Program-made: the position numbers and the translations under genes
From: a virus
DNA: 46,683 bases
IMG/VR virus record: IMGVR_UViG_3300045988_122518
Reading direction: 5' to 3' (one strand)
The notes under the pieces: generated by a model
Database searches by the model: none
The model's input: the letters and a program-made list of their open reading frames with translations, nothing else
Told to the model about the DNA's origin: nothing
Shown: one piece after another, positions 2,969 to 15,475 of the stretch
Numbering within the stretch: the first letter of the stretch is position 1
Layout: each line of letters opens with the position of its first letter

Positions 2969-3007
2969 CTATACTTAATGTATCAAAGGAAAAGGGAATA
3001 AAAAAAA

Positions 3008-3124: not shown

Positions 3125-3125
3125 A

Positions 3126-3197: not shown

Positions 3198-3199
3198 AA

Positions 3200-3556
3200 A
3201 TGGGAATGGAATTTTTAATCGTTGGCGGAATTTTTAGCGCAGTCCTTGCGCTGTTTGTTTGCCTTGTCTGTTGGTGCAACATGGACAAGTCTCACCCAAT
3301 AGTCAGACTGTTGGTTGGTCTTCTCATTTCGTGCGCTCTTGGCTACGGTATGACGGGCGCAGTAGTCGCTGACCACAATGCCGACAAAAAAGCATGGAAT
3401 GACGGCTATTGCTCCATCTGTGGAAATGAAATGAAATTTGTAAATGCTTCTCATGGCCGGTATGGAACAGTTTATTACTATTGGTATTGCGATGAGTGCG
3501 GACATACGTTAGAGCTAACCTCTAACTTTGCAAAGGGGGAAACAAATAATGAATGA
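3200..3556 (+). CDS. Membrane protein (two TM helices) with a C-terminal CxxC..CxxC zinc ribbon (118 aa)
   Basis: RBS aaaaaggggaaataaaaATG. Hydrophobic N-terminus. Motifs CSICGN and CDECGH. Confidence 0.55.
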   Translation: MGMEFLIVGGIFSAVLALFVCLVCWCNMDKSHPIVRLLVGLLISCALGYGMTGAVVADHNADKKAWNDGYCSICGNEMKFVNASHGRYGTVYYYWYCDECGHTLELTSNFAKGETNNE

Positions 3557-3755
3557 AAAACCTATCCCGCAGGCTTTGAGAGAACAGGCAGACGCCCTTG
3601 AAAAATTGGCTCAAAGAATTGCAAAAGAAAGTCAGAAATTTTCAGACGCGGAAGACTACAAAGACGGCGGAGAACTTGCGAACGCCTTGTTTGCGATTCA
3701 GTCCAAACTCCGCTATGAATACTTCTGGATTGCGGAAGCCATGTGGGACGTATAA
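3549..3755 (+). CDS. Small helical ORFan protein (68 aa)
   Basis: RBS aaagggggaaacaaataATG. Overlaps the upstream stop. Terminator at 3757-3798. Confidence 0.5.
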   Translation: MNEKPIPQALREQADALEKLAQRIAKESQKFSDAEDYKDGGELANALFAIQSKLRYEYFWIAEAMWDV

Positions 3756-3799
3756 TTTTCAGGCGAGATTTAATTATCTCGCCTGAAAATTTTTTTCAA

Positions 3800-4158
3800 A
3801 AAACTATTGACAAACTCGCCCCGTTGTGGTATTATAATCATGTCAAGAGGAAATGGTAAGCCTCTTGAAGTAGTAAACAAATTTTTCATACTATGGTTTG
3901 CGCGGTAGCCGATAATTACCGCGCCCTTTCTATTTCATTTTTGTTAAAATTTTAACAATGGTTGTTCGGCCGGGCGCGCACGGCCCACGCGCCCGGAATT
4001 TCCATTATATCACGGGGCCAGCAATTTGTCAAGCAAAAAGTTGCGAAAATTTGCACAAATTATTTTTCCCAATTTTGTGCGATCCGTCAATAGACAAATC
4101 TCTAAGGGTGTGTTATATTATAATTGTTCCAAGGGAACAGAAAGATGAGGTAAATAAA
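3800..4158. repeat. Intergenic module copy A: P1, palindrome, GC hairpin 3968-3998, minus-strand promoter, TTTGCGAAAA box, P2
   Basis: Shares the GC hairpin, aatttccattatatcac, caatttgtcaag and aatagacaa blocks with copies at 5908, 7948, 10368, 12913 and 15004. Confidence 0.7.
4004..4032 (-). promoter_or_regulatory. Minus-strand promoter inside module A (TTGACA = rc of 4027-4032; TATAAT = rc of 4004-4009; 17-bp spacer)
   Basis: Perfect consensus hexamers on the minus strand. Transcription would run leftward through the GC hairpin. Confidence 0.5.
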
Positions 4159-4365
4159 ATGACTAACTACAACATTCACTCTTTTATCAAGACCCAGCTT
4201 CTCTATGCCGAGCAGATGCCCTCTGACGCCGAACTTTTCAAGCATAACGCTTATGGCGCAGTTCAGTGGGAGTTATATCGCACGAATGACTCGACTCTTG
4301 AAACACAGTGGGAAATCATATATGCTCCCAAGTTCGACGCCATCATCAGAAATTATCATTTCTGA
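4159..4365 (+). CDS. Small ORFan protein (68 aa)
   Basis: RBS agatgaggtaaataaaATG. The six-frame ORF starting at 3958 runs through the non-coding module, so the start was placed at 4159. Confidence 0.5.
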   Translation: MTNYNIHSFIKTQLLYAEQMPSDAELFKHNAYGAVQWELYRTNDSTLETQWEIIYAPKFDAIIRNYHF

Positions 4366-4433
4366 TAAAAAGGGCTTGACAAAAGCCCTTCCGCATGGTA
4401 TAATACATATACAATCAAGAAAGAGGTAAGTAA

Positions 4434-4584
4434 AATGGATATGGTTCGAGTTTACAACAGACACACTAACGAAGTCCTTGAAAAGGTCTTTGCAGACCCC
4501 GCAGACGCAGACGACTTTGAAACTATTCTCGACTTCCTTGAAGCGGAATATGAGCGCTACCACGATGGGGAACAATTATATTAA
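4434..4584 (+). pseudogene. Small acidic protein gene interrupted by a +1 frameshift at the C4G2 run near 4497-4501
   Basis: Perfect promoter (aagggcTTGACAaaagccc..tggTATAAT) and RBS. The start frame ends at TGA 4518 after 28 codons. The +1 frame then continues as ADADDFETILDFLEAEYERYHDGEQLY to TAA 4582. Confidence 0.35.
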
Positions 4585-4656
4585 AGGGGCTTGACAAGTC
4601 CCTCCCCATATGGTATAATACAATCAATCCAAGAGGAAAAGAAAGAGGTAAAACAA

Positions 4657-4995
4657 ATGCTTATCAAAATGTCAAAACACGCTACGCAAGACCGCATTGA
4701 CCGCCTGCTCTTCATCTACGATAATGTAGGAATCGGCGAACCGTATATCGACAGCATTGAGGACGATGTTCTCTACACTATCACTACAACCGGTATTCTT
4801 CTTATTCGTAGCGCTAAGGACGGCACACTCATTACCGCCTATATCGCGGATATTGATAAAATCACCGCGATTTGGAGAAACAAGCACGGCGAGCGCCCCA
4901 TGCCTGACAACCTTTACAAGCGTGTCCTCGCAAATGCGTTCTTCGATAGAATGTGGAATAAACAGGAAAAGGAGAAAAAGAAAAATGTTCGGTAA
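4657..4995 (+). CDS. ORFan protein (112 aa)
   Basis: Promoter gggcTTGACAagtccctccccatatggTATAAT. RBS agaaagaggtaaaacaaATG. Confidence 0.55.
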   Translation: MLIKMSKHATQDRIDRLLFIYDNVGIGEPYIDSIEDDVLYTITTTGILLIRSAKDGTLITAYIADIDKITAIWRNKHGERPMPDNLYKRVLANAFFDRMWNKQEKEKKKNVR

Positions 4996-5341
4996 GAAAA
5001 AAGAAAAGAAATTCAATCCCTATGAGAATCACACAGACGAAATGCTTTATAAGGTTTGGGAAGAGCGCGACCGCCTTTATGAAAAGACAAGGCAAGCCAT
5101 TACGCGCGTAGGAGTGATTAACCTTTATCCTGACTGCCCTGACCGCAAGAAAGCAGTCTCCGACGCCGAAGAAGCGAAACACGCTTTAATTGTGGCTATT
5201 GGAGCATACGACACCGCGCGCATGGAGTATAATAACTACATCAAAAAGTATGCGGAAAAGTTCAATAGTCCCAAAGAGGAATGGACTACCACAAGCCATG
5301 AAATCATTGAATGGGCTTACAAATACTATTATAAAGGGTGA
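4985..5341 (+). CDS. Basic/helical ORFan protein (118 aa)
   Basis: RBS aaaaggagaaaaag. Overlaps the upstream gene by 11 nt. Confidence 0.5.
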   Translation: MFGKKKEKKFNPYENHTDEMLYKVWEERDRLYEKTRQAITRVGVINLYPDCPDRKKAVSDAEEAKHALIVAIGAYDTARMEYNNYIKKYAEKFNSPKEEWTTTSHEIIEWAYKYYYKG

Positions 5342-5346
5342 ACGAA

Positions 5347-5586
5347 ATGAAAATTACTGTTAAGCATAGCAACAAAATGGTTGCATTTGAAGACCTCCCC
5401 GAGGGTATGATTTTTCAAGACCCTGCTTCTGGAAACGTCTATTACATCAAAATCGCGACTGTGGTTGATGAAGATACCGGTGCAGAAGAATGGAACGCTC
5501 TCAATTTAGACACTTACAATCTCGACTGCTTTGGCGCGCCCTGCATGGTTCGGCCTGTCTATGACGCGGAACTGATTATCCCTTGA
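5347..5586 (+). CDS. Small ORFan protein (79 aa)
   Basis: RBS aaagggtgaacgaaATG. Translationally coupled to the upstream gene. Confidence 0.5.
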   Translation: MKITVKHSNKMVAFEDLPEGMIFQDPASGNVYYIKIATVVDEDTGAEEWNALNLDTYNLDCFGAPCMVRPVYDAELIIP

Positions 5587-5697
5587 CAAAACCGAACTTT
5601 TGTTCGTGTTTTTCTCCCCCTTTCCTATGGCTTTGGCGGTTGTGCCTGAAACAACCGCCACCCTTTCCAAAAAATAAATTGAATGGAGATAAGAAAA

Positions 5698-5874
5698 ATG
5701 AAGAATGAGAAACTGAGCGAGGTTGTTGAAACGGTGTGCAGAATGGCTCGATACGGCATTCAGAAGAGATACCCGTCGGGCGGAACAGCAGCAAATGAAA
5801 TGATTGAGCGTGTCGCGCTTCTTGAAGACAAGCTCGTTCCCATTCTCGTCGACCTCGAAGCCGTAGAAAACTAA
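5698..5874 (+). CDS. Small ORFan protein (58 aa)
   Basis: RBS ggagataagaaaaATG. A 9-bp GC hairpin lies upstream at 5636-5660. Terminator at 5880-5908. Confidence 0.45.
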   Translation: MKNEKLSEVVETVCRMARYGIQKRYPSGGTAANEMIERVALLEDKLVPILVDLEAVEN

Positions 5875-5907
5875 ATGAAAAATCACCCAAATTGGGTGAT
5901 TTTTTTT

Positions 5908-6100
5908 GTTTACTTTCACTATTGACAAAGTTCCTTGAATGTGATAAAATCGTCGGCGCGCGGACGATTGTGGCGCGCCGAGTTTTTTGTCAAGAGGTAA
6001 GTTCAACAAATTTTCGCACGAATTTTTGTGTAAAATGCCAATAGACAAAAATCCTATAATGTAGTAAGATGTATACAACAAATAAAGGGGGAATAAAATA
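5908..6100. repeat. Intergenic module copy B (P1 TTGACA 5922-5927 / TAAAAT 5945-5950; GC hairpin 5953-5980; TTTCGCACGAA box; P2)
   Basis: Same architecture as the other copies but lacks the minus-strand -10 element. Confidence 0.65.
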
Positions 6101-6445
6101 ATGGTGGCATGGTATTGGTTGATTCTCGCGTTTTGTGTGGGTATTGCATTCGCTACAATCACCGACGAATGGTGCGAATGGGAAAACACCTTGACTGATG
6201 TTCTCGCATGGATTGCTCTGATTATCGGCTTTGTTCCTTTGTCTTTCTATTGCATATTTCTCAAACTGACAGTTTTCCACCCCACTACGCAAGAGAAGTT
6301 TGAGGAAGTCAAAAAGGTTAGCGAAGAAACTTGTAAAATCTATCGAGTATGCGGAAACGTGTATTTCTGGATTGACCCCAAAGCAACAAAAATCTATAAC
6401 AAGGTCTTTTTTGTCCGAGTAAAGGAGGCTGAAAACAATGGGTGA
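6101..6445 (+). CDS. Membrane protein (114 aa, 2-3 TM helices)
   Basis: RBS aaagggggaataaaataATG. Hydrophobic N-terminal half. Confidence 0.55.
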   Translation: MVAWYWLILAFCVGIAFATITDEWCEWENTLTDVLAWIALIIGFVPLSFYCIFLKLTVFHPTTQEKFEEVKKVSEETCKIYRVCGNVYFWIDPKATKIYNKVFFVRVKEAENNG

Positions 6446-6596
6446 AAGATTTAATGTTTTATGTTTAATTGAGTGGTTGCGTGCTTGGGTAGAGACCTTT
6501 AACGACTGCGCGTGTTGTCCTTTGTCCAACGAGTGCGACCGCAGAAGCATCAGCTATGAATGTGCTGATGACCTATTAGAAAAATTAAAAGAGTAA
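6438..6596 (+). CDS. Cys-rich mini-protein (52 aa)
   Basis: RBS aaaggaggctgaaaacaATG. Its start overlaps the upstream stop by 8 nt. Confidence 0.4.
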   Translation: MGERFNVLCLIEWLRAWVETFNDCACCPLSNECDRRSISYECADDLLEKLKE

Positions 6597-6669
6597 ATTA
6601 AAAACTCTCTATTGACATTTCTATTATAATATGATATTATTATAATAGAAAAAGGAAAGGGTGATAATA

Positions 6670-7143
6670 ATGAATACAATTCTTCTGTTCGCGCTTTGCA
6701 CGGCGGTGAATGTGATTCTGTCAACTATCAAAAGCATTTTGACTGTCAACGGCGGGAAGTTTAGTGCTTCTCTTATCAATGCCATCACATATGGATTTTA
6801 TTCCTATGTGATTGTGCTGACTTCCGCGGACGGTATGCCTATCTGGTTGAAAATGGCTATTACTGCTGTTTGTAATTTCGTGGGCGTCTACTTTGTTAAG
6901 TGGATTGAAGAGAAAGCCCGCAAAGACCGATTATGGAAAGTCGAACTGACTGTCCCGACAAAATACACTAACACCATTGATTTTGATTTGCATGACGTTC
7001 CGCACTCTTACATTGAATTGAGCGATAAACATACGCTTTTCAATTTTTATTGTGCGACCCAAAAGGAAAGCGCAAAAGTCAAGGCTATTGCCAATCAATA
7101 CGAAGCAAAATATTTTGTCGCGGAAAGCAAAAATCTTGAATAA
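6670..7143 (+). CDS. Membrane-anchored ORFan protein (157 aa)
   Basis: Promoter ctaTTGACAtttctattataatatgaTATTAT. RBS aaaggaaagggtgataataATG. Confidence 0.55.
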   Translation: MNTILLFALCTAVNVILSTIKSILTVNGGKFSASLINAITYGFYSYVIVLTSADGMPIWLKMAITAVCNFVGVYFVKWIEEKARKDRLWKVELTVPTKYTNTIDFDLHDVPHSYIELSDKHTLFNFYCATQKESAKVKAIANQYEAKYFVAESKNLE

Positions 7144-7207
7144 AGGGCTTGACAAAAGCCTTTTGTTCTGCTATACTTAACGTATCAAGTGAAAGGGGAA
7201 AATTAAA

Positions 7208-7660
7208 ATGAAAGCTACTGGTATTGTTCGCAGAATTGATGACCTTGGACGTGTGGTTATCCCGAAAGAGATTCGCCGGACTTTGAAGATTCGAGAGGGC
7301 GACCCGCTTGAAATCTTCATTGAAGACAACGACTGCGTTTGCTTCAAGAGATATTCAGTGCTTGGCTCTTTGACCGAAGAAGCTCTGCGAGTTGCTATCA
7401 CAATGGCGTCAAATTCCGGCCTGCGTCCCATCGCAATCTATGACACTACCGTGAAACTGCGGGGCATGGAAAACTTTCCGCCTTATGTTTCGACCCAGTG
7501 GGATTTTAAAAGAAAGCCGTTTGTTTTCAATAACACTTATGGCGTTTACCCGATTTGTGCGGACGGCGACCTTGTGGGTTATGCGGTTTGCGACCAGCAG
7601 GACATGGGTTGCGAAATGGACATGATTGTCCGCTACCTCAGCATTGTGTCTGAACGCTAA
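7208..7660 (+). CDS. AbrB/SpoVT-family swapped-hairpin DNA-binding regulator (150 aa)
   Basis: N-terminus MKATGIVRRIDDLGRVVIPKEIRRTLKIREGDPLEIF matches the AbrB/MazE/SpoVT N-domain signature (..GIVRKVDELGRVVIP.E.RR.L.I...D.LEI). This comparison is from memory, not a database search. Confidence 0.6.
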   Translation: MKATGIVRRIDDLGRVVIPKEIRRTLKIREGDPLEIFIEDNDCVCFKRYSVLGSLTEEALRVAITMASNSGLRPIAIYDTTVKLRGMENFPPYVSTQWDFKRKPFVFNNTYGVYPICADGDLVGYAVCDQQDMGCEMDMIVRYLSIVSER

Positions 7661-7736
7661 AAAAATAGCATAAGGGACTTGACAAAACAAGTCCCTTATG
7701 CTACAATAAAAGCATCAAAGGAAAGAGGTAAATAAA

Positions 7737-7916
7737 ATGGAAATTGAAAAGACATTCTGGGTTGATTACAGCGGTAAAAATCCTTGGGACCAGTATTATG
7801 ATAATCGGGTTCGTTTTTACTCCGAAGAAGAAGCTGATGCTTTTATCCAAAAGTTGATGGAAGATGAAAATATCTATCAGATTTTCAAAACCATTACTAC
7901 CAGCTATCACAGATAA
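7737..7916 (+). CDS. Small ORFan protein (59 aa)
   Basis: Promoter gggacTTGACAaaacaagtcccttatgcTACAAT, with the -35 in a hairpin loop. RBS aaaggaaagaggtaaataaaATG. Terminator at 7917-7948. Confidence 0.5.
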   Translation: MEIEKTFWVDYSGKNPWDQYYDNRVRFYSEEEADAFIQKLMEDENIYQIFKTITTSYHR

Positions 7917-7947
7917 AATTTGAGGTGAAAATTCACCTCATTTTTTT

Positions 7948-8170
7948 AGTTATTTTGCCTATTGACAAAAATCCAATAGTGTGATAAAATGACCGGCCGT
8001 TCGCGCCTGCCACGGCCGGAAATTCCATTATACCACCATCTCAGCAATTTGTCAATAGGAAATTTAGCCAAAAGTCCAACTAATTATTTTCCTGAATTTG
8101 GGTATTTTACCAATAGACAAGAATGTAATAATCTGCTATACTATGGATACAGTAAAGAAAGGGGATACAA
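7948..8170. repeat. Intergenic module copy C (P1 7962-7990; GC hairpin 7993-8019; minus promoter 8027-8055; P2 8114-8142)
   Basis: All three promoters have consensus hexamers with exact 17-bp spacers. Confidence 0.7.
8027..8055 (-). promoter_or_regulatory. Minus-strand promoter in module C (TTGACA = rc 8050-8055; TATAAT = rc 8027-8032)
   Basis: Reverse complement reads cctatTGACAaattgctgagatggtggTATAATgg. Confidence 0.5.
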
Positions 8171-8173
8171 ACA

Positions 8174-8437
8174 ATGTATTACACTCACGATTTTTCTACT
8201 GAAAAGTTCTCCACTCGCGAAGAATGTGCGGAAGAGCTTCTTTCTTCTATGGATTCTCTTGATATTTCAGAATTCCTTGCTCAGCGCGTTAGTCTCAGCG
8301 ACATTATTGATGAACGCGCGACCCGCGACCCCGAGGATTTTTATGACTGGTTGGATAGGGAAATTGAGATTGCAACTAATGCTTATCTCAACTATCATAT
8401 CAACGAATACGCGGGCCACTTGGAGGATTTAGAATGA
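8174..8437 (+). CDS. Acidic ORFan protein (87 aa)
   Basis: RBS aaagaaaggggatacaaacaATG. Confidence 0.55.
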   Translation: MYYTHDFSTEKFSTREECAEELLSSMDSLDISEFLAQRVSLSDIIDERATRDPEDFYDWLDREIEIATNAYLNYHINEYAGHLEDLE

Positions 8438-8556
8438 TTATTTTAATCGGCATTTTCGGCCTCGTTTTTGGCTTTATTTTTGCCTATTCCTGTGAAAAGT
8501 CTCGGGTGGGACTCTTTCAATATCGTCTACGCTATTCCTGTGCTGATTTTGCTTAA
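8434..8556 (+). CDS. 40-aa membrane mini-protein
   Basis: ATGA start/stop overlap with the upstream gene. Hydrophobic IILIGIFGLVFGFIFA. Confidence 0.35.
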   Translation: MIILIGIFGLVFGFIFAYSCEKSRVGLFQYRLRYSCADFA

Positions 8557-8584
8557 TTTCTTATCTTTTAAGGGGTAAAATAGT

Positions 8585-8716
8585 ATGTCATTTTGTGAAA
8601 GTTTTAATTGTGGCTATTACTATAAAGGTGAAAATGATGAATTCGCCTGTTGCCACTGTGAAAGCCCCATCGCGCCTTGTGAAGAAGAAGACGAAAATTA
8701 TGAAGAAGAAAATTGA
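8585..8716 (+). CDS. 43-aa Cys-rich acidic mini-protein
   Basis: RBS aaggggtaaaatagtATG. CxxC motifs. Confidence 0.3.
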   Translation: MSFCESFNCGYYYKGENDEFACCHCESPIAPCEEEDENYEEEN

Positions 8717-8786
8717 AAAAAACTCTTGACAAATCCAAAAGTATCTGATATACTATGGGTATAGTAAAGGAAAGGGGTAAACACCT

Positions 8787-9080
8787 ATGAGTAAACCGAA
8801 AACTTATGAGTATGAGGGAAGAACCTTTGAGGTCAAGGCATACAGCGGAGATGAGTATGGGGCTTTCTTATTCATCTATGTTTATGAAGTTATCCACCCT
8901 AACCGCAAATTCTTTGGTCGAACTCGGCTCTTTTGCGAAGATTTTATTCTTCTCGACCAATATCTTTCTATTGATGACGCGGTAAAAGATGTCATCGCAC
9001 GGGGTCTTTGGCAGGAAGAATATAAAAAGTTTGCCAAAGATAAATGGAAAGAATGGATAAATAAAGCGGGAAATTGCTAA
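8787..9080 (+). CDS. ORFan protein (97 aa)
   Basis: Promoter ctcTTGACAaatccaaaagtatctgaTATACT. RBS aaaggaaaggggtaaacacctATG. Confidence 0.55.
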   Translation: MSKPKTYEYEGRTFEVKAYSGDEYGAFLFIYVYEVIHPNRKFFGRTRLFCEDFILLDQYLSIDDAVKDVIARGLWQEEYKKFAKDKWKEWINKAGNC

Positions 9081-9148
9081 AATTTTTCTTGACAACCGCG
9101 CAGATGTATGGTATAATACAAATACAGTAAAGGAAAGGGGTAATACCT

Positions 9149-9649
9149 ATGAAAATCACTTACATCAAGTCCCACGTTGTGGCCACTCGACGTTCCATCA
9201 ACTTTGACATGGACGGCACTATCGCTGACCTCTACGGCGTCAAGGATTGGCTCGCGCTTCTCCGTTCGGAAAATCCTAAGCCCTATCGAACTGCCGTTCC
9301 CATGTGCGACATGGCTGAATTGAATGAGGTTTGCGAACTTCTCCGCGCCGAGGGCTGGGAAATCAATATCATCACTTGGCTCTCTAAGGATTCGAGCGAG
9401 GAATATAAAAACCTCGTGCGTGAAGCAAAGCGCGCTTGGCTTGAAGAGCAGGGCTTCCACTATGACCACTTCCACGGCGTCCAGTATGGCGCGACTAAGG
9501 CCGACAGCGTGCGCGACCGCTATGACGTGTCCATCTTGGTTGACGATAATGAAAAGGTTCGGAATGGTTGGCATTTGGGTGAAACTATTGACCCGACCGC
9601 AGTAAACATTATCGAAAAACTTTCGGAACTTTTGGAGAAAAGGGCTTGA
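9149..9649 (+). CDS. HAD-superfamily phosphatase, likely a 5'(3')-deoxyribonucleotidase (NT5C-like) (166 aa)
   Basis: Motif I FDMDGTIAD (DxDGT) sits near the N-terminus, the usual position in NT5C-type phage nucleotidases. Promoter tcTTGACAaccgcgcagatgtatggTATAAT. Confidence 0.5.
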   Translation: MKITYIKSHVVATRRSINFDMDGTIADLYGVKDWLALLRSENPKPYRTAVPMCDMAELNEVCELLRAEGWEINIITWLSKDSSEEYKNLVREAKRAWLEEQGFHYDHFHGVQYGATKADSVRDRYDVSILVDDNEKVRNGWHLGETIDPTAVNIIEKLSELLEKRA

Positions 9650-9703
9650 CAAAGCCCTACTCCAATGGTATAATAAATGTATCAAATGAAAGGGGAAAAT
9701 AAA

Positions 9704-9910
9704 ATGTTTGTTCTTTTGATTCTGCTGTCTCTCGCAATTTCGTTCCTGCTTACCTCTGGTCTGGTTTGGCTTCTCTGTTGGCTTCTTCCCGCCCTCGGTA
9801 TTACCGCAATCGGCACTTTCGTCATCGTGTTCTCGTGGAAGCTGGCACTCGCAATTTGGATTATTCTCGTGCTTTTGCAGTCCATCTTCTCGGTCGGTTC
9901 AAAGGGGTGA
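9704..9910 (+). CDS. Small integral membrane protein (68 aa)
   Basis: Promoter gggcTTGACAaagccctactccaatggTATAAT, a terminator/promoter hairpin. Two TM helices. Confidence 0.5.
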   Translation: MFVLLILLSLAISFLLTSGLVWLLCWLLPALGITAIGTFVIVFSWKLALAIWIILVLLQSIFSVGSKG

Positions 9911-9915
9911 TAAAA

Positions 9916-10059
9916 ATGATGCCTTATTTTTGGGTTGATGTTGGAATCATCGGAAAAGTAGTTGAAAAGATTGATGACGACCTTTTCATCTATGAAACTG
10001 TTATCACCAAAGAACGCGCGACCGTGACCGCAAAATGGGTCAAGGAACATCTGCTTTAA
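9916..10059 (+). CDS. 47-aa mini-protein
   Basis: RBS aaaggggtgataaaaATG. Confidence 0.35.
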   Translation: MMPYFWVDVGIIGKVVEKIDDDLFIYETVITKERATVTAKWVKEHLL

Positions 10060-10075
10060 GAGAGGAGAAATAAAA

Positions 10076-10333
10076 ATGAAAGTAAATTTTGGCACTAAGG
10101 GTCAGCTCCAAATTATCAACATTCTCAGCGGTGGCACGTTCACCACTCTGCGCTCTAACGGTAGCGGTATGGGAATGTATCTCAAAATTGACAGCAACAA
10201 CAACACGCCGTTTGTCCGGTCGAGAGGTTCGCAGTATTGCTACGCGGTGAATCTTGAAACGGGTCAGGTTCGCGAATTCTCGCGCGACAAGATGGTAACG
10301 CCTGTCAGAACCGAAGTCAGTGTGATTGGCTAA
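10076..10333 (+). CDS. ORFan protein (85 aa)
   Basis: RBS agaggagaaataaaaATG. A bidirectional terminator follows at 10338-10368. Confidence 0.55.
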   Translation: MKVNFGTKGQLQIINILSGGTFTTLRSNGSGMGMYLKIDSNNNTPFVRSRGSQYCYAVNLETGQVREFSRDKMVTPVRTEVSVIG

Positions 10334-10367
10334 AAGAAAATCTCCCCAAAAATGGGGAGATTTTTTT

Positions 10368-10570
10368 GTTTACTTTGACTATTGACAAAATCATTTGAAT
10401 GTGATATAATGGGCCGGCCGTTTCCGCGCGCTACGGCCGGAATTTACCATTATACACCCTGCCAGCATTTTTGTCAAGAGAAATTTCGCACAAATTTCAA
10501 TTTTATTTTTTCCCGTTATTTAGCTATTTTACTAATAGACAAATCAGTATCAATCTGCTATACTACATAA
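10368..10570. repeat. Intergenic module copy D (P1 10382-10410; GC hairpin 10412-10440; minus promoter 10449-10477; TTTCGCACAAA box 10484-10494; P2 10536-10564)
   Basis: Best-preserved copy. All spacers are exactly 17 bp. Confidence 0.75.
10449..10477 (-). promoter_or_regulatory. Minus-strand promoter in module D (TTGACA = rc 10472-10477; TGTATAAT = rc 10449-10456)
   Basis: Face-to-face with P1 (-10 at 10405-10410), about 40 bp away with the GC hairpin between. The predicted leftward transcript of roughly 110 nt would end at the bidirectional terminator 10338-10368. Confidence 0.5.
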
Positions 10571-10756
10571 TGTCAGGAGGAAAGAGTAAGACCTGCGGAA
10601 AGGCAGTTCCCTTGACCATCATACCAGAAGCCGACACAAGGAATGTTCCAAGCGTGGCGTGCCGAACAAACTTTCAAAAAAAGTTTGAAAAACCCCTTGA
10701 CAAACCGCTCGACCTATGGTATAATGAATACATCAAATATGAGAGGTAAAAACAAA

Positions 10757-10796
10757 ATGATTTCTGATGCTCGCCCACCGCCTTAAAAACTAATGG
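10757..10796 (+). CDS. Possible 12-aa leader peptide MISDARPPP* (polyproline then stop)
   Basis: Canonical early promoter (ccccTTGACAaaccgctcgacctatggTATAAT) and RBS gagaggtaaaaacaaaATG. Followed by a second mini-ORF MYSNKPRDRP* at 10849-10881. Confidence 0.2.
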
Positions 10797-10979
10797 CTTA
10801 TTGAATTGGATTGGTTTATGAGTATAGATAAAGGTAGGTATAAACAAGATGTATAGTAATAAACCTCGCGACCGCCCCTAAAAAAATTTGCAAAAACTAT
10901 TGACAACCTGCTTCGCCTATGATATAATAACTACATCAAAGACAAGGACAGTCTTAAAAACCAGAAAGGAATTGATACT

Positions 10980-11360
10980 ATGGCTACTTCTACTTCTACC
11001 ACTAAGAAGCTCACCAAGCGCGACCGTTTCGAGGCTCTGCTTAAAATGAGCGAGGTTCAGGCAAATCCTGACATGGTGGCGTTCATTGAGCATGAGATTG
11101 AACTGCTCGCCAAGAAGAACGCGGGCGACAAGAAGCCCACGGCCAAGCAGATGGAGAATGACGCCGTGAAGCAGGTCATTCTGGACGAGATGACCGCGAA
11201 TCCCGACAAGCTGTATACCGTAACCGACCTCATCAAGGGCGTTCCCGAGCTTGCGGACTACTCCAACCAGCGCGTTTCCGCTCTTCTGCGTCAGATGATT
11301 GACGCGGGTGCGGTTGTCAAGACGGTTGACAAGCGCAAGTCCTACTTCTCCCTCGCGTAA
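10980..11360 (+). CDS. Paralog A of a three-member family, possibly a winged-helix DNA-binding protein (126 aa)
   Basis: Promoter ctaTTGACAacctgcttcgcctatgaTATAAT. Shares TKKLTKRDRFEALLK..EHEIELL..KKNAGDKKPTA..QRVSALLRQMI..KRKSYF with 13540-13917, and the core FxEHEIELLxKK with 34343-34759. Confidence 0.55.
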   Translation: MATSTSTTKKLTKRDRFEALLKMSEVQANPDMVAFIEHEIELLAKKNAGDKKPTAKQMENDAVKQVILDEMTANPDKLYTVTDLIKGVPELADYSNQRVSALLRQMIDAGAVVKTVDKRKSYFSLA

Positions 11361-11449
11361 AGGGAAAAGGGCAGGGGATAAAAAAAATCCCCTGCCCTAC
11401 AAAAAAAACTGTTGACAAACCAATAGCAAGGTGCTATACTATTATTAGA

Positions 11450-11478
11450 GGTTGAGAGAACGATGGTAAACCTCAATC
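11450..11478 (+). ncRNA. Conserved 5'-UTR hairpin element ggttgagagaacgatggtaaacctcaatc (copy 1)
   Basis: Identical 29-mer at 14499-14527. Stem gaggtt/aacctc with a 16-nt loop, sitting between a promoter and the start codon. Confidence 0.4.
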
Positions 11479-11503
11479 TACTTTTCCAATAGGAGACGAT
11501 AAG

Positions 11504-12280
11504 ATGGGTATTGATAAGCGCAAAAACTACGGCATTATGCTGGACACGGAAACCGCAAACACCATTCAGGACGGCGATAAGCTGGATATGTCAAATGTGC
11601 TTCCCTATGACTTCGGCTGGGCGGTCATTGATTCCAAGGGAAATGTTTATGAAACTCATTCCTTTGTGAATCGCGACATTTTCTGCTACGAGCGTGACCT
11701 CATGCAGTCCGCATACTATGCCGATAAGATTCCCCGCTACATTGAGGACATTCAAAACGGCACTCGCATTATGGCTGACCTTTACGAAATTCGTCTTGCG
11801 TTCTGCGAATGTGTCGAGCGCTACAACTGCTCTTTTGTCTGTGCTCATAATATGCGGTTCGACCTTAACGCCTGCAACAACGCGCAAAGATGGGACACGA
11901 AAAGCAAGTATCGCTATTTCTTCCCCTACGACCTTGAAATTTGGGACACGTTGAAAATGGCGCGTCAGGTTATCGGCAAGATGCCTACTTACCGCGACTA
12001 TTGCGAAAAGAACGGCTATAAAACCAAGAACGGACAGCTCCGTTTCACCGCAGAAATTCTCTATCGCTTTATCAGCGGTGAGGACAGCTTTGATGAATCC
12101 CACACGGGACTTGAAGATGTTCTCATTGAAGTTGAGATTCTGCGCTATTGCGTCCGACAGCACAAGGAAATGGACAAGTCCCTTTTCAAAACTCCCACGG
12201 TGAAGCGCCCCAAGCCTACCGAGTTTCAGCGCGCGCTCATGCGAAACATTAAGGAAAATCCCGTTGTAAACATGAGCTAA
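11504..12280 (+). CDS. DEDDh-family 3'-5' exonuclease (DnaQ/RNase T-like) (258 aa)
   Basis: Exo I motif IMLDTETAN (D-x-E). Exo III-like motif ESHTGLEDVLIE (H-x4-D). Promoter ctgTTGACAaaccaatagcaaggtgcTATACT. Confidence 0.5.
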   Translation: MGIDKRKNYGIMLDTETANTIQDGDKLDMSNVLPYDFGWAVIDSKGNVYETHSFVNRDIFCYERDLMQSAYYADKIPRYIEDIQNGTRIMADLYEIRLAFCECVERYNCSFVCAHNMRFDLNACNNAQRWDTKSKYRYFFPYDLEIWDTLKMARQVIGKMPTYRDYCEKNGYKTKNGQLRFTAEILYRFISGEDSFDESHTGLEDVLIEVEILRYCVRQHKEMDKSLFKTPTVKRPKPTEFQRALMRNIKENPVVNMS

Positions 12281-12357
12281 AAAAAATAGGGAATAGGGCT
12301 TGACAAGTCCTATTCCCTATGGTATAATCAATATATCAAATGAAAGAGGTGTTTCAC

Positions 12358-12636
12358 ATGAACGCTAAACAAGTCCTTTTTGTAGTCCCTGATGACAATG
12401 ACCCTCACATGGGCATTTTAATCGACCATGACTATATTATCTGCGCCGAGTGCGGTGGCGTCTTTGAAGCCGATGAAGTTTTCATTATTCAGACCTACGA
12501 CTCTTGGGTAAACTTTGAAGCCGAGATTGCGGACGAGCTTGACCTACTGACCGCAAAAGACATTGGCAAGAAGTTAGACCGCGAGGAAAAATTCGGCTGG
12601 GACGCATGGAAAGAAGCAATTAAAGGGGAGTTTTGA
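12358..12636 (+). CDS. ORFan protein with a CxxC motif (92 aa)
   Basis: Promoter gggcTTGACAagtcctattccctatggTATAAT. RBS gaaagagg. Start at 12358 rather than the track start at 12340. Confidence 0.5.
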   Translation: MNAKQVLFVVPDDNDPHMGILIDHDYIICAECGGVFEADEVFIIQTYDSWVNFEAEIADELDLLTAKDIGKKLDREEKFGWDAWKEAIKGEF

Positions 12637-12638
12637 AA

Positions 12639-12878
12639 ATGGATTTAGATTTGAATTACATGACCGACGAGGAACTGGACGAACTCATTATCCAGATACA
12701 GGAAGCCAGAAAAGCCCGCGAAGAAAGCCGAAAGACTGACCTTTGGAGAAGTGTTCAGCGGGCGGTGCAGACTTACGTCATGGAATGTGGAATGATTGAA
12801 CTCTTTACCGAGGATTACAATTCCACGCTGGATGCTGATTCTTTCAGAATTCCCGGCGAGATTAACCTGCTGGACTAA
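12639..12878 (+). CDS. Acidic ORFan protein (79 aa)
   Basis: RBS aaaggggag 8 nt upstream. Terminator at 12885-12912. Confidence 0.5.
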   Translation: MDLDLNYMTDEELDELIIQIQEARKAREESRKTDLWRSVQRAVQTYVMECGMIELFTEDYNSTLDADSFRIPGEINLLD

Positions 12879-12912
12879 ATAAAAAACTGCCCAAAAATGG
12901 GCAGTTTTTTTT

Positions 12913-13110
12913 GTCTATTTTGCCTATTGACAAACGCGGATTTTTGTGATAAAATGGCCGGCCCGCCAACGCCCAAAGCGGGCCGAATTCACCATTATAC
13001 CACGCCCCGCCAATTTTGTCAAGAGAAAAGTTGCACAAAAGTGAAGAAAATTTTTTCCCGTAATTTGGTTATTTTGTCAATTGCAATCTGTGGGCAATCT
13101 GCTATAATAG
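12913..13110. repeat. Intergenic module copy E (P1 12927-12955; GC hairpin 12959-12985; minus promoter 12994-13022; box aaagttgcacaaaa; P2 -10 13103-13108)
   Basis: Same ordered blocks as copy D. Confidence 0.7.
12994..13022 (-). promoter_or_regulatory. Minus-strand promoter in module E (TTGACA = rc 13017-13022; TATAAT = rc 12994-12999)
   Basis: Reverse complement reads ctcTTGACAaaattggcggggcgtggTATAATgg. Confidence 0.5.
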
Positions 13111-13440
13111 ATAATGTCAAGAGGGAAACGGCTCAATGAGGGTCGCTCCCATCAGGATTAAGCCGAAAAAATTTCAAAGAAATTTGAAATTCCCTCTTGA
13201 CAAATCCCAGCGAGTGTGCTACAATAGAAAATGTCAAGAGGGAGTAGCCCAAGAAATCCGAGGGCGCGCGACCTTGAGAAAGTATAGGAAGTAAACATAA
13301 TACACCACGTTGTAAAGCCAAACGTTGAACGTGAAAGTGAGTTTGATTGAACCAACTATCCTTGACGCGGTTTTCCGCTGACAAATAGATTGAATCAACA
13401 AACAATAAATTATCCGTCAGGTCGGGGTAGTAATTCGTGT
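13110..13440 (+). ncRNA. Promoter-driven stretch of about 330 nt with no convincing ORF; candidate non-coding RNA or leader
   Basis: Three tandem sigma70-like promoters at about 13081-13108, 13199-13228 and 13450-13478. Each is followed by the leader aatgtcaagaggga. The only ORFs here run through promoters or lie antisense. Confidence 0.25.
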
Positions 13441-13539
13441 GAAAAGTTTGCGAAACCTCTTGACAAGTACTCTAAAGTGTGGTATACTCAATAATATCAA
13501 AAGGGTAGCGACCTACCGCCAAAGAAAGGAATTGATACC

Positions 13540-13917
13540 ATGTCTACTTCTACTGTTAAGAAGCTCACCAAGCGCGACCGTTTCGAGGCTCTGCTCAAAC
13601 TGTCCGAGGTTCAGGCTGACCCCGCCATGGTTGAGTTTATCAACCACGAAATCGACCTGCTGTCCCGCAAGAACGCGGGGGACAAGAAGCCGACCGCGAA
13701 TCAGATTGCCAACGACGGCTACAAGGACATTATCTTTGCTGAGCTGTCCGCGAATCCTGACAAGCTCTACACCGTGACCGAACTCATCAAGAACGTGGAC
13801 GGTCTGGGCGACCTCACCAACCAGCGCGTTTCCGCTCTTCTGCGTCAGATGATTGAAGCGAACGGCGTCGAGAAGATTGTGGACAAGCGCAAGTCCTACT
13901 TCCGTCTCGCCCACTGA
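13540..13917 (+). CDS. Paralog B of the three-member family (125 aa)
   Basis: About 65% identical to 10980-11360. Terminator gggggagcgcctga..tcaggcgctccc at 13921-13960. Confidence 0.55.
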   Translation: MSTSTVKKLTKRDRFEALLKLSEVQADPAMVEFINHEIDLLSRKNAGDKKPTANQIANDGYKDIIFAELSANPDKLYTVTELIKNVDGLGDLTNQRVSALLRQMIEANGVEKIVDKRKSYFRLAH

Positions 13918-14017
13918 TTCAGGGGGAGCGCCTGAAAAAAATCAGGCGCTCCCAAAAATTTCTCTTGACATTTGCTAACGGCGGTGTTATAATCATACTT
14001 GAAAGGGGGCAAAAGAA

Positions 14018-14425
14018 ATGCCTAAAATGAGTGAAAAAGACTTTCAGGCAAAGATTGATAATCTAATGAAAAAGTTAGATTGTACTGCCGAGGAAGCAAA
14101 AGAAATTCTCATGGACGATGATGACATTGACCATGGAATCGCCAAGGACTTTGACCTGTCCGCGGAAAAGCTCAAAGAAGCTAACAAGTATTCTAAAACC
14201 GGAACACGCAAAGCGCCGACCGCTTATAAGTTTGAGAAGCGACAGCGCAAGGAAAACCCCACAAAGCGCTCGATTATCGCTGAACTTGCAACTTTTTTGC
14301 GTGAAAACAGCGAAAATGCGTGCGAAAATGTGGAAATCACGAACATTGAACGCATGATTGCGTTCCATGTGGGCGAAAATGACTATGAATTGACCCTGAT
14401 TCAGAAGCGAAAGCCCAAAAATTGA
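14018..14425 (+). CDS. Acidic/basic ORFan protein (135 aa)
   Basis: Promoter ctcTTGACAtttgctaacggcggtgtTATAAT. RBS aaagggggcaaaagaaATG. Terminator at 14434-14472. Confidence 0.55.
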   Translation: MPKMSEKDFQAKIDNLMKKLDCTAEEAKEILMDDDDIDHGIAKDFDLSAEKLKEANKYSKTGTRKAPTAYKFEKRQRKENPTKRSIIAELATFLRENSENACENVEITNIERMIAFHVGENDYELTLIQKRKPKN

Positions 14426-14498
14426 CAAAAAAGGGTGAAAAACCGCTGAAAAATGCGGTTTTTCACCCAAAAACAAGTCAAAAAATGCAAAAAATAAT

Positions 14499-14527
14499 GG
14501 TTGAGAGAACGATGGTAAACCTCAATC
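14499..14527 (+). ncRNA. Conserved 5'-UTR hairpin element (copy 2 of ggttgagagaacgatggtaaacctcaatc)
   Basis: Identical to 11450-11478. Located 20 nt upstream of the start at 14549. Confidence 0.4.
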
Positions 14528-14548
14528 AATAGAGAGGATTTTGTGCCG

Positions 14549-14959
14549 ATGGAAGAAATTACTATTAAGCTACGCCGATTTAAGGACGGCAGACCGCCCG
14601 TTTCAATGGAGTTTATGCCTAATTGTGGCGAGAATCTGAAAGACGTTCAAGCGGTCTACTTTTTCAAGTTTTACAACAACAACAAACTTGAATTTAACAA
14701 GGTAGGCACTTCCGCAAAAGACGTTGTAGGGCGTTTGCGTGATGAAATCGGTGAGTATGCAAAAAAGTATGCTATCACGCGCGTTGAAATTCATCGAATT
14801 CGTTCTTGCGGGGACTCCCCCGCCGAGGGCGCGGAAAGCGCGTTGCGTGCGGAACTGATTAGACGCTACCCCAAAGCGTTTCGCAAGAATGACCGCTTTT
14901 TTAACGTGGACATTAACCCCACGGTTTTCGATGAAATTGTAAACGCATTTCTTGCATAA
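14549..14959 (+). CDS. ORFan protein (136 aa) with a weak GIY-YIG-like N-terminal pattern
   Basis: RBS agagagga. The start could also be GTG 14543. The pattern AVYFFKF..KLEFNKVGTS..GRLRDE loosely resembles GIY..YIG..R..E, which is weak evidence. Terminator at 14966-15004. Confidence 0.4.
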   Translation: MEEITIKLRRFKDGRPPVSMEFMPNCGENLKDVQAVYFFKFYNNNKLEFNKVGTSAKDVVGRLRDEIGEYAKKYAITRVEIHRIRSCGDSPAEGAESALRAELIRRYPKAFRKNDRFFNVDINPTVFDEIVNAFLA

Positions 14960-15003
14960 ATATTCAATCAGCAGGTTGACTAAAACCTGCTGATTTTTTT
15001 TTG

Positions 15004-15100
15004 TGCATTTTGCCTATTGACACCGATCGGAAAATGTGGTATAATGGACCGCCCGATCACTGACGCTCCGGGCGGAATTTCGGAATAATTATAGGTTTAG
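15004..15100. repeat. Intergenic module copy F (P1 TTGACA 15017-15022 / TGgTATAAT 15037-15045; GC hairpin 15049-15075; degenerate downstream blocks)
   Basis: Retains aatttcggaataattatagg and tttgtgcgaaaa, but the minus-strand -35 is degenerate. Confidence 0.55.
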
Positions 15101-15414
15101 CAAATTTTGTGCGAAAAAAGTGTTTAAAATAGACTCAGACTAAAATCCCGGAATGCTCAGTCTATTTGGCCGGCTCGCGGTGGGACGCTGCGAGCCGATT
15201 TCCCGATCGGTATACCCATATGCAAAATTTCTCATACTTCTAGCACCTCTCCATATGGCCCAAAAAAATCCCGAAAATTGACTTTTTATAAAAAATATGT
15301 TATAATGGTAAAAAAGACTTTTTTAAGCCCGCGTAGGATCATATGCCTTTATGATTAATTAAAAATTGCTTCGCCCTTACATTGTTTCACGCGTATGTTT
15401 TCATTTAAAAAAAT

Positions 15415-15444
15415 CTTGACATTTTTAAAAAAAAAGTATATAAT
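15415..15444 (+). promoter_or_regulatory. First class-2 (AT-rich) promoter: TTGACA, tttttaaaaaaaaagta spacer, TATAAT, then conserved leader atatatagaaaataagaaaagagg
   Basis: Marks the shift from the GC-richer early region to the AT-rich region. The same roughly 60-nt promoter and leader recurs at least 14 more times downstream. Confidence 0.55.
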
Positions 15445-15475
15445 ATATATAGAAAATAAGAAAAGAGGTATTCAT

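Follow-up and report, generated by a model that had tools for sequence, protein, structure and literature searches.

The early region of an uncultured gut phage, represented here by a window that is the whole 46,683-nt stretch of DNA analysed, carries an array of modules in which three promoters of one type succeed one another in the order P1 (rightward), P_L (leftward) and P2 (rightward), with a GC-rich hairpin between P1 and P_L. As read from sequence, the module probably gives rise to a short RNA transcribed backward and sets the early genes apart in blocks; our preferred reading, to which we give a probability of about 0.4, is that it would act as a boundary node dividing early (host-takeover) transcription units. 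All six copies (A to F) listed in the initial annotation were recovered in place by inspection and alignment, and a seventh, decayed copy lies at the left end (272–440). The modules recur every 2–2.5 kb (1984–2545 bp between A and F), D and E lying inside a segmental duplication of about 1 kb (families D8 and D14), and their elements are restricted to the first 15.2 kb of the window. A chance origin of the module features is excluded. We found no earlier description of a head-on promoter/hairpin unit in the literature. The elements had been thought specific to this genome, which proved wrong: about 60 distinct copies are present in about 30 IMG/VR viral contigs of 60–197 kb, related and distant. 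The features of the window are as follows, with strand where one applies.

272–302: hairpin H0 of the decayed seventh module; perfect, 10-bp stem, 11-nt loop, no flanking promoters
321–330, minus: upstream element remnant of the lost P_L of H0, TTTGTGCA (321–330 reads TTTGCACAAA)
410–438, plus: first early promoter, P2 equivalent of H0, 11/12; TTTGTGCA ahead at 393–400
3807–3835, plus: promoter upstream of module A, 11/12; predicted short transcript ending at hairpin 3900–3924
3900–3924, plus: hairpin resembling a terminator, lying between the 3807 promoter and hairpin A; T tail weak on plus and absent on minus
3970–3996: hairpin A, 9-bp stem, 9-nt loop
4004–4032, minus: P_L of A, 12/12 with TG, 7 nt from stem
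4091–4119, plus: P2 of A, TAGACA-17-TATATT, feeding gene 4159–4365
5877–5905: bidirectional terminator ahead of B
5922–5950, plus: P1 of B, 11/12, TG
5953–5981: hairpin B, 9-bp stem, 11-nt loop
6042–6070, plus: P2 of B, feeding gene 6101–6445
7921–7940: bidirectional terminator ahead of C
7962–7990, plus: P1 of C, 11/12, TG
7993–8019: hairpin C, 8-bp stem, 11-nt loop
8027–8055, minus: P_L of C, 12/12 with TG
7912–8021, minus: predicted leftward RNA of C, about 110 nt; 5′ hairpin, AU-rich linker, terminator; MFE −36.2, z −5.5
8114–8142, plus: P2 of C, feeding gene 8174–8437
10334–10367: bidirectional terminator ahead of D
10382–10410, plus: P1 of D, 12/12 with TG
10414–10440: hairpin D, 8-bp stem, 11-nt loop
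10449–10477, minus: P_L of D, 12/12
10328–10443, minus: predicted leftward RNA of D, about 116 nt; MFE −38.3, z −4.3
10536–10564, plus: P2 of D
12881–12910: terminator ahead of E, A run upstream, T run downstream
12927–12955, plus: P1 of E, 11/12, TG
12959–12985: hairpin E, 8-bp stem, 11-nt loop
12994–13022, minus: P_L of E, 12/12 with TG
12872–12988, minus: predicted leftward RNA of E, about 117 nt; MFE −44.2, z −4.7
13081–13108, plus: P2 of E
14966–14995: bidirectional terminator ahead of F
15017–15045, plus: P1 of F, 12/12 with TG
15049–15075: hairpin F, 7-bp stem, 13-nt loop
15088–15115, minus: weakened P_L of F, TTCGCA-16-TATAAT, 10/12, 12 nt from stem
15171–15197: promoterless hairpin G at the early-region border

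A consensus promoter scan of positions 1–16000 returned 82 promoter-like sites, where shuffled sequence gave 29.1 ± 5.4. Only four minus-strand sites in that span reach 12/12 (4032–4004, 8055–8027, 10477–10449 and 13022–12994), and they fall exactly in the copies, A, C, D and E, for which a perfect minus-strand promoter had been claimed. That these four also carry face-to-face promoters flanking the hairpin is true of C, D and E; A is effectively P_L-only, since its plus promoter lies 135 bp upstream, behind hairpin 3900–3924. The minus-strand promoter, described as degenerate in B and F, has indeed lost its −10 block in B (a deletion of about 24 nt that left TTGTCAAGAG at 5988–5997), whereas F retains a weak 10/12 P_L. 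What had been listed as a separate TTTCGCACAAA box forms the upstream part of P_L, and P1 and P2 are preceded by it as well. By their sequence, P1 and P_L, both near-perfect promoters of host type, and P2 are plainly versions of a single, presumably strong, sigma-70/sigma-A-like promoter.

The geometry of the pair is nearly fixed across copies: the −35 elements of P1 and P_L span 92–97 bp, and their −10 hexamers are separated by 34–37 bp in more than 50 copies. P1 stands 2–4 nt from the stem and P_L 7–8 nt, across an AT-rich interval. The P_L −35, 17-bp spacer, TGn and −10 are all retained in related and distant contigs, and neither the −35 hexamers nor the 17-bp spacing had been part of the search pattern, which specified only the two −10 regions; the view that selection maintains the minus-strand blocks as a promoter is supported. 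In distant relatives the modules are the sole early-region DNA still detectable by blastn. P_L is antisense to genes at every locus examined, P_L-only copies included, and a promoter of its type is also found alone beside a hairpin. Some hairpins are accompanied by P1 alone, some by P_L alone and some by no promoter at all.

Hairpins of this class (a GC stem of 7–10 bp and a loop of 9–13 nt) number eight in 1–15200, where shuffles lead one to expect 0.2, and none in 15300–46683. Overall size is 27 nt in 6 of 8 in this genome and in 32 of 50 in the wider copy set. The stems covary strongly: 91.5% of cells are paired versus 24–40% with the partner slid, seven of the nine stem pairs show double changes, and the observed covariation score was reached by none of 500 shuffles. 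To be sure, compensatory changes can arise without selection, via template switching in quasi-palindromes, and one hairpin, inverted exactly over 30 bp, shows that such DNA-level events occur. The hairpin had been placed right at the P1 start point; more precisely, in this genome the start lies 1–4 nt inside the left arm, so that the P1 RNA would carry a truncated stem only, weakened to about −7 to −15 kcal/mol, and the P_L RNA the whole hairpin. Of 28 clustered copies that have P_L, 22 form a hairpin RNA that is stabler in the P_L sense, and of ten P1-only copies, nine form one that is stabler in the P1 sense (Fisher p = 2.5e-4); copies with both promoters favour the P_L sense by 16 to 4. Counts of G:U versus A:C are too few to be decisive (3, plus 1 opposite case by eye). 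The strand skew in stability is indirect evidence that P_L fires; it could come from transcription-associated mutation bias instead of selection, which would still imply leftward transcription.

Terminators stand ahead of modules B to F. Their description as often bidirectional is apt for B, C, D and F, which score on both strands (C with a poor tail on the minus strand), and fails for A, where no U-tailed minus-strand terminator appears before about 3754. Leftward RNAs running toward the bidirectional terminator had been predicted at 120–130 nt (110–134); promoter and terminator positions do predict such RNAs for C, D and E, at about 105–117 nt, and A has no near minus-strand terminator to end one. 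The three predicted RNAs fold as a 5′ hairpin, a linker and a terminator, with z scores of −4.3 to −5.5.

How a boundary node might work can be pictured from these positions, with start points, termination and promoter strength all predicted. P_L would start 0–3 nt before the stem, so its RNA would open with the complete hairpin as a 5′-terminal stem-loop, extend about 105–117 nt and stop at the bidirectional terminator of the upstream operon. RNA polymerase has a footprint of roughly −55 to +20. With −10 hexamers only 34–37 bp apart and start regions overlapping by 24–26 nt, two polymerases could not occupy P1 and P_L together, and one at either promoter would exclude the other; the convergent-transcription switch suggested in the initial annotation is in this respect geometrically plausible. 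A polymerase leaving P_L would collide head-on with read-through past the upstream terminator, and the node would insulate each early-gene block of 2–2.5 kb and hold down P1, presumably the weaker opener owing to its GC-rich start region, with P2 still supplying the downstream operon. The 5′ ends of the P1 and P_L RNAs, complementary over 24–26 nt, could also pair. Decay of P_L at the left end, where no upstream operon exists to oppose, would fit this picture. Blocking P1 would leave the operon unsilenced, as P2 lies downstream of the clash; and since P1-only, P_L-only and promoterless hairpins exist, mutual occlusion cannot account for the function in full, and the hairpin may do something in its own right.

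It is possible, though unlikely, that the product of P_L is what matters: an abundant and very stable non-coding RNA, protected by a stem-loop at its 5′ end and a terminator at its 3′ end, that acts in trans, for instance by titrating a host RNase, an RNA chaperone or a defence sensor as a decoy or sponge would, the overlap with P1 being incidental. P_L-only copies do keep the hairpin, whose stability is adjusted to the P_L sense, the predicted RNAs are shaped like classic small RNAs, and a strand-specific CG persists at loop positions 4–5, often as (C/A)ACG. However, structure alone is conserved, with stem and loop sequences differing even among copies of one genome. Between hairpin and terminator only the P1 promoter consensus positions are conserved, the RNA body is unrelated in P_L-only copies, and Rfam gave no match; the family of small RNAs once proposed is not supported as one that shares a functional sequence. 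Nor is a 34–37 bp spacing to P1, fixed in more than 50 copies, easily regarded as incidental.

In T4-like phages, PeSLs (promoter-early stem-loops) are described as motifs composed of a terminator and an early promoter through which indels are mediated (PMC4122927, PMC2839356). Our modules would, on an unlikely reading, be recombination cassettes of this kind, providing homology for the swap, gain or loss of early genes, with ordinary early promoters. Like the module, PeSLs are short, combine a terminator with an early promoter, are repeated in many copies between small, variable early genes, surpass those flanking genes in conservation and turn up at indel borders (PMC2839356, PMC4122927). 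At the tier-2 loci, where the early regions otherwise cannot be aligned, the modules are the most strongly conserved DNA. Indel borders in close relatives fall at 6103, 7944, 8092, 12865 and 13129, all module edges, and the close relatives L052 and L067 lack 15055–15167, a deletion that fuses hairpins F and G. Further borders, however, lie at ordinary promoters or gene ends (8568/8708, 9109, 9936/10060 and 13193), as for any intergenic indel, and the hotspot for recombination proposed earlier is no more than suggestive. Homology does not account for an antisense promoter that is perfect, for spacing that is fixed yet asymmetric, or for a stem that covaries and whose stability is tuned to one strand, and the hairpin is the least conserved sequence within the module. 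PeSLs have neither an antisense promoter nor a GC hairpin at the transcription start, whereas the core of the module is a head-on promoter pair of Firmicute-like type with a covarying stem.

We consider it rather improbable that the module is a DNA-level element at which RNA polymerase binding serves a DNA transaction: replication from a transcription-activated origin or R-loop primer site, passage of a checkpoint as the genome enters stepwise, or the blocking of end-processing nucleases. Such roles would suit confinement to the first 15.2 kb at regular spacing, promoterless hairpins at both early-region borders, a hairpin (272–302) still perfect though unlikely to be transcribed, and the G-rich tendency of the leftward RNA loops; the inversion and the hairpin-to-hairpin deletion show active DNA. 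Yet cruciform extrusion is unfavourable with loops of 9–13 nt, the stems vary and thus offer no obvious sequence-specific protein site, the asymmetry in stability follows promoter type, which is an RNA-level signal, and six to seven origins in 15 kb would be unusual. Very improbable, finally, is a hairpin that merely stabilises the rightward P1 mRNA, as 5′-terminal stem-loops do in Firmicutes, with P_L a functionless by-product of an ancient inverted promoter duplication: the common promoter type and the P1-only copies, stabler in the P1 sense, would agree with this, but a functionless P_L would neither exist alone nor remain 12/12, with TG and a 17-bp spacer, across distant, otherwise diverged contigs, P1 transcribes a truncated hairpin where P_L transcribes all of it, and two-promoter copies favour the P_L sense.

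Taken as a boundary node, the module recalls coliphage 186 pR/pL, Enterococcus pCF10 prgQ/prgX, pIP501 RNAIII and lambda oop RNA, where a strong counter-directed promoter makes a short terminated RNA and both collision or occlusion interference and antisense pairing are possible; as with oop, the RNA is predicted to end in the 3′ region of the upstream unit. In those systems 60–300 bp separate the starts, and complementarity between the antisense RNA and its target is long, whereas here the starts overlap by only 24–26 nt, co-occupancy would be barred, the shared segment is the hairpin, and the unit is repeated six to seven times per genome. Ribosomal RNA operons carry tandem P1 and P2 promoters, the upstream one with a GC-rich start and the second about 120–150 bp later in the same operon. 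Module P1 and P2 are similarly arranged, with a GC-rich, probably G-initiated upstream start and the second promoter about 120–150 bp on, although rRNA operons lack both the antisense partner and the hairpin; sensitivity of the phage's P1 to GTP or ppGpp would be pure conjecture from this analogy. The host-takeover block of Bacillus phages SPO1 and SP82 occupies 13–15 kb at the genome end, with many small genes in short operons, each with a strong sigma-A promoter and a terminator, and in SP82 repeated RNA hairpins between early genes are RNase III sites. The early region described here resembles it as a terminal block of small genes in short operons, each with a promoter of that type and a terminator, and with hairpins between them, and no sequence or protein similarity to SPO1/SP82 was found. 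The SP82 sites share a conserved sequence and are internal to polycistronic RNAs, whereas the module hairpins lie between overlapping promoters.

The first 15.3 kb of the window resembles a host-takeover region in its organization. Small plus-strand genes are densely arrayed there in short operons, each of which has a terminator and a promoter close to the TTGACA-17-TATAAT consensus, and a consensus scan found 82 promoter-like sites for 29 expected. Beyond this early region the window is AT-rich and displays a different promoter family. All six places where the initial annotation had put a repeated intergenic module do carry it (A, 3800-4158; B, 5908-6100; C, 7948-8170; D, 10368-10570; E, 12913-13110; F, 15004-15100), in the order terminator, plus-strand promoter P1 (cTATTGACAAA-17-TGTGATAAAAT), GC hairpin, a promoter block reading on the minus strand (P_L) and plus-strand promoter P2. 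The terminator directly adjoins the P1 upstream element in B-F and in a 50-copy consensus. The consensus and hairpin scans placed P_L and the hairpins as follows.

4032-4004, minus strand, P_L promoter of module A, 12/12 consensus match
8055-8027, minus strand, P_L promoter of module C, 12/12 consensus match
10477-10449, minus strand, P_L promoter of module D, 12/12 consensus match
13022-12994, minus strand, P_L promoter of module E, 12/12 consensus match
272, start of hairpin, module H0
3970, start of hairpin, module A
5953, start of hairpin, module B
7993, start of hairpin, module C
10414, start of hairpin, module D
12959, start of hairpin, module E
15049, start of hairpin, module F
15171, start of hairpin G

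The four P_L sites are the sole 12/12 minus-strand promoters within the 16 kb scanned. The eight hairpins form one class; six are exactly 27 nt long and none lies past 15200 (0.2 expected in the hairpin scan). The one found at 272 belongs to a seventh module, H0, at the extreme left end, which lost both flanking promoters and kept the TTTGCACAAA element and a P2 equivalent, and an additional hairpin without promoters (G, 15171) stands at the early region's right-hand border. Copies within the window are 60-79% identical over 58-78 nt, with a variable hairpin core. Modules D and E are part of a segmental duplication of ~1 kb, which also holds the only paralogous pair among 38 early proteins (genes g10980, at 10980-11360, and g13540, at 13540-13917; 73% identity). 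With these two as the only paralogues, a common gene downstream of the modules is ruled out. Face-to-face promoters flanking the hairpin had been proposed for A, C, D and E. This stands for C, D and E, where both abut the hairpin; A has its plus promoter 135 bp off, beyond another hairpin, and is thus a P_L-only copy. P_L, thought degenerate in B and F, did lose its -10 block in B through a deletion of ~24 nt, while F still has a 10/12 P_L, at the wrong distance. Finally, the TTTCGCACAAA box is not an element of its own: TTTGTGCA-like sequence is found ~45-55 bp upstream of the P1, P_L and P2 starts alike, oriented with each promoter, and the module thus employs a single promoter type in three places (-> <- ->).

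Contrary to what the initial annotation had stated, these features are not specific to this genome, as ~60 distinct full modules occur in ~30 viral contigs of 60-197 kb. A first IMG/VR scan, with a pattern that fixed only both -10 regions, returned, besides chance matches, several dozen sites with a GC-rich interval; nearly all of these had TTGACA / TGTCAA 17 +/- 1 bp outside the -10s, with a hairpin between. The count of ~60 adds a second scan and an explicit search for promoter pairs. Across modules the -35 boxes are 92-97 bp apart, the hairpin is 27 nt long in 32 of 50, 2-4 G-rich nt separate the P1 -10 from the stem and 7-8 nt (AATTTnCC) the stem from the P_L -10. More distant contigs (L001, L035, L044, L062, L105, L267, L274) have the same architecture in unrelated sequence, some distant ones with 10-bp stems and loops of 3-4 nt. 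Modules are still detectable at 70-78% identity where genes no longer are, and in distant (tier-2) relatives they are the sole early DNA that blastn can detect. In the related contig L046 (6475-6742) two modules follow one another directly (-> <- -> <-), the P2 of the first doubling as P1 of the second pair, and the second hairpin is different (TTCGGGGT...ACCCCGAA). An exact-protein look-up found the same phage in assemblies from the human gut, as contigs 127 and 134 kb long. DNA searches for near and for distant similarity gave no module match in GenBank phages, and a cultured distant relative, Enterococcus phage EF1, has neither module nor class hairpin in the 50 kb examined (40-90 kb). In Rfam 15 only tRNAs reach the gathering threshold and no RNA family matches the module; permissive hits (STnc230, Phe_leader, others) score 24-37 bits for thresholds of 50-55 and are driven by terminators. 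Among the matches listed in prokaryotic (bacterial and archaeal) genomes, mostly chance ones, at least one is genuine, carried by a contig of 3 kb that had been assigned to a Nanosyncoccus MAG; this contig is probably a mis-binned phage fragment, and no host assignment is drawn from it. A literature search found no earlier description of an equivalent element. The element is real and conserved, its parts are familiar and their arrangement is unusual; it is classed here with convergent-promoter/antisense control and with the repeated promoter-terminator cassettes of phage early regions.

The hairpin itself is under structural constraint. Over 34 distinct modules the nine-pair helix is 91.5% paired, against 24-40% with the partner slid, both-side changes occur in 7 of 9 pairs (62 cells) and 0 of 500 shuffles reached the observed covariation, a result to be read knowing that later filters, though not the first retrieval, demanded a hairpin, and that template switching can 'correct' quasi-palindromes. 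Indeed, L046:6475-6570 and L089:6998-7093 (a second related contig), 99.8% identical over 596 bp, differ solely by the exact inversion of the 30-bp hairpin core, which carries the stem over from P1's side to that of P_L, so the hairpin can flip in nature. Invertible promoter switches (invertons) have a segment that occurs in both orientations between inverted repeats, and a recombinase; here the case consists of one contig pair, the repeats measure just 6-8 bp and a recombinase was not found. No U tract directly follows the stem: AAUUUnCC comes next on the plus strand and CC(C)AUUAUA or CCAUUUUAU on the minus strand. The absence of that tract speaks against a terminator, and the terminator scan leaves the central hairpins uncalled save for a marginal call at 12970-12957. 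Roles as a mimic of CRISPR repeats, as a Chi site or as an operator for a protein are rejected or unsupported, stems and loops varying among copies. The N4-type virion-RNA-polymerase promoter is a short DNA hairpin, with a 5-7 bp stem and a 3-nt loop, serving early genes, and the module does not fit it: loops have 9-13 nt in most copies and the early genes have textbook sigma-70-type promoters. Nor is this a REP/MITE-like repeat (e.g. a Correia element): the arms agree at promoter consensus positions only, their spacers are unrelated and hairpins differ among copies of one genome.

Copies of the hairpin with a single promoter, or with none, exist and show that it is valuable on its own. The promoter type with a 2-4-nt spacer is always co-directional with the genes, and that with a 7-9-nt AT-rich spacer always antisense to them, even when alone. 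Every hairpin was folded as RNA in both senses. Once near-duplicates had been clustered, 22 of the 28 P_L-bearing copies proved more stable in the P_L sense and 9 of the 10 P1-only copies in the P1 sense (Fisher p = 2.5e-4); in the window, the minus sense is favoured in A, C, D, E and F and the plus sense in H0, B and G. This test took the place of a count of G:U versus A:C wobbles as strand indicators, where 3 versus 1 events were too few. The skew may result from selection on the RNA or from a transcription-associated mutation bias; on either reading it tracks whichever promoter transcribes the whole hairpin. It is the best available evidence, albeit indirect, for the use of P_L, which, judging from its sequence, is very probably a working promoter.

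With starts predicted at the usual 7-nt distance from the -10, P_L RNAs would begin 0-3 nt ahead of the stem and P1 RNAs 1-4 nt within its left arm, so that the whole hairpin (-14 to -21 kcal/mol) would be part of the former and a truncated one (about -7 to -15) of the latter. The predicted leftward RNAs of C, D and E have 105-117 nt and fold as a 5' hairpin, an AU-rich linker and a terminator. A terminated RNA is predicted for B-F type copies. Three of them (B, D, E) have a good minus-strand U tail, that of C and F is poor, and there is none near A; a terminated product of ~110 nt is somewhat more likely than not to be made. Inspection by eye ruled out a conserved small ORF within it, as start codons or ribosome-binding sites are not shared. 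The predicted P1 and P_L starts overlap by 24-26 nt and the footprint of RNA polymerase reaches about +20, so two open complexes cannot coexist. Like cis-antisense or countertranscript systems, the module has a putative opposite-strand promoter convergent with that of its target (12/12 in the window, conserved in ~60 copies); unlike them, its complementarity to the P1 RNA is limited to 24-26 nt at the extreme 5' end, and this overlap contains no ribosome-binding site or attenuator.

Because the P_L RNA would carry the full hairpin and end terminated, and because open complexes exclude each other, we read the module as a boundary node, with a probability of about 0.4 for a boundary or occlusion function. 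P_L would yield a backward RNA, hairpin-capped and terminated, and would both occlude P1 and oppose read-through from the upstream operon, while P2 would serve the genes that follow. At the left end, which has nothing upstream of it, P_L has been lost, in keeping with this account; the copies with one promoter or none, and the escape of P2 from the clash, speak against it. A recombination cassette similar to the promoter-early stem-loops (PeSLs) of T4-like phages has some support: the module does contain a composite of terminator and early sigma-70-type promoter, similarity among copies gives homology for recombination, in the tier-2 relatives blastn detects no early DNA but the modules, and several indel borders of close relatives are at module edges (6103, 7944, 8092, 12865, 13129, 15055/15167), one deletion fusing hairpins F and G. 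A similar number of borders, however, are at other promoters or gene ends, and recombination leaves the antisense promoter and the fixed asymmetry, both absent from PeSLs, unexplained (PMC2839356, PMC4122927). That fusion is seen in two close relatives (L052:8514-8524, L067:4358-4368), which are without the 112 bp between hairpins F and G (window 15055-15167), so that a G-type hairpin directly follows the P1 of F; the junction is a deletion or insertion with end points within hairpins. It is possible that the P_L product is a stable RNA acting in trans, but conservation is limited to structure. A role at the DNA level, as an origin, an entry checkpoint or a nuclease barrier, fits in part, with modules confined to the first 15 kb and spaced regularly (1984-2545 bp), yet not with the asymmetry at the RNA level. 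That P_L has no function is contradicted by its conservation.

A bolder speculation, which we hold unlikely, sees in the module a regulatory element of a class new to phages, namely a two-state promoter toggle in which the balance of backward and forward transcription would report the physiological state of the host. P1 and P_L would be rivals for a single stretch of DNA and have a single RNA hairpin in common; P1, with its GC-rich start, would probably initiate with G, and P_L, AT-rich at its start, with A. The choice between expression of the takeover-gene block and a backward dead-end RNA would then be set by GTP/ATP pools or by how supercoiled the DNA is just after entry. Inversion of the hairpin, of the kind that separates L046 from L089, would provide a heritable reset.

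The early host-takeover region of a large lytic phage is commonly portrayed as a plain series of strong promoters and terminators. Across this whole group of uncultured human-gut phages, with genomes of ~130 kb, no early-region DNA is better conserved than an antisense unit of precise build, which implies that these phages actively partition or gate their early transcription rather than just turning it on. Being small (95 bp) and made of parts that the host RNA polymerase should recognise, the unit is directly testable in vitro. If occlusion holds true, synthetic biology would gain a natural insulator or toggle of small size; should the RNA instead be what acts, a new family of phage non-coding RNAs would be defined by structure alone.

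Several further features accompany the modules. The window opens with a tandem repeat of a 46-bp unit (GAAATTGAAAATTGATTTGTTGTTTTAAATCGTACTTT...), about 2.5 copies within positions 1-100, possibly marking a physical genome end. At many single early promoters (2004-2028, 2936-2967, 7146-7160, 7665-7704) a hairpin includes the -35 hexamer (GGGCTTGACAAAAGCCC, then a T run), thus fusing terminator and promoter in one sequence. After several promoters, (A)TGTCAAGAGG(G)AA sits at the start point (3838-3850, 10568-10580, 13113-13125, 13231-13243, 13493-13505); it is the reverse complement of CCTCTTGACA around other -35 boxes, and the two can pair over 12 nt (13116 and 13190) into a structured RNA of ~90 nt. 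The stretches 10570-10750 and 13110-13530 look largely non-coding. A candidate regulator of early promoters is encoded at 7208-7660, an early protein whose DNA-binding domain is of the AbrB/MazE (SpoVT-AbrB) type (E = 3.5e-10). In a 127-kb assembly of essentially the same phage (L293:13458-14641), genes of 454 and 534 aa (window 31142-34252) follow almost directly after the early region, so ~15 kb of the window (15400-30400) is variable or absent there. A second promoter-like family (TTTGAttttttATAAAAAATAATATATAATATATATAGAAAGTTAAGAAAGG), 12-15 copies within 15400-46683 (e.g. 21530-21605, 24929-25004, 42768-42843), precedes genes in the AT-rich part; as phage EF1 has a similar motif (L292:14709), this may be a middle or late promoter of the phage group. 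Reading through TAG lengthens ORFs in 15300-46683, from 13 to 17 of at least 150 aa; for stop-codon recoding this weak TAG signal in the late region is the sole hint. Ten to eleven tRNA genes cluster at 42000-46287, and the one at 42000-42070, with an unassignable anticodon, may be a suppressor, since recoding of TAG in late genes is described for the related phAss-1 group (PMC10607447). The late gene at 40249-41385 has an internal duplication: it holds glycine-rich GGTGGTGGCGGC repeats, and two copies of a 98-nt segment, 950 bp from each other, are 93% identical.
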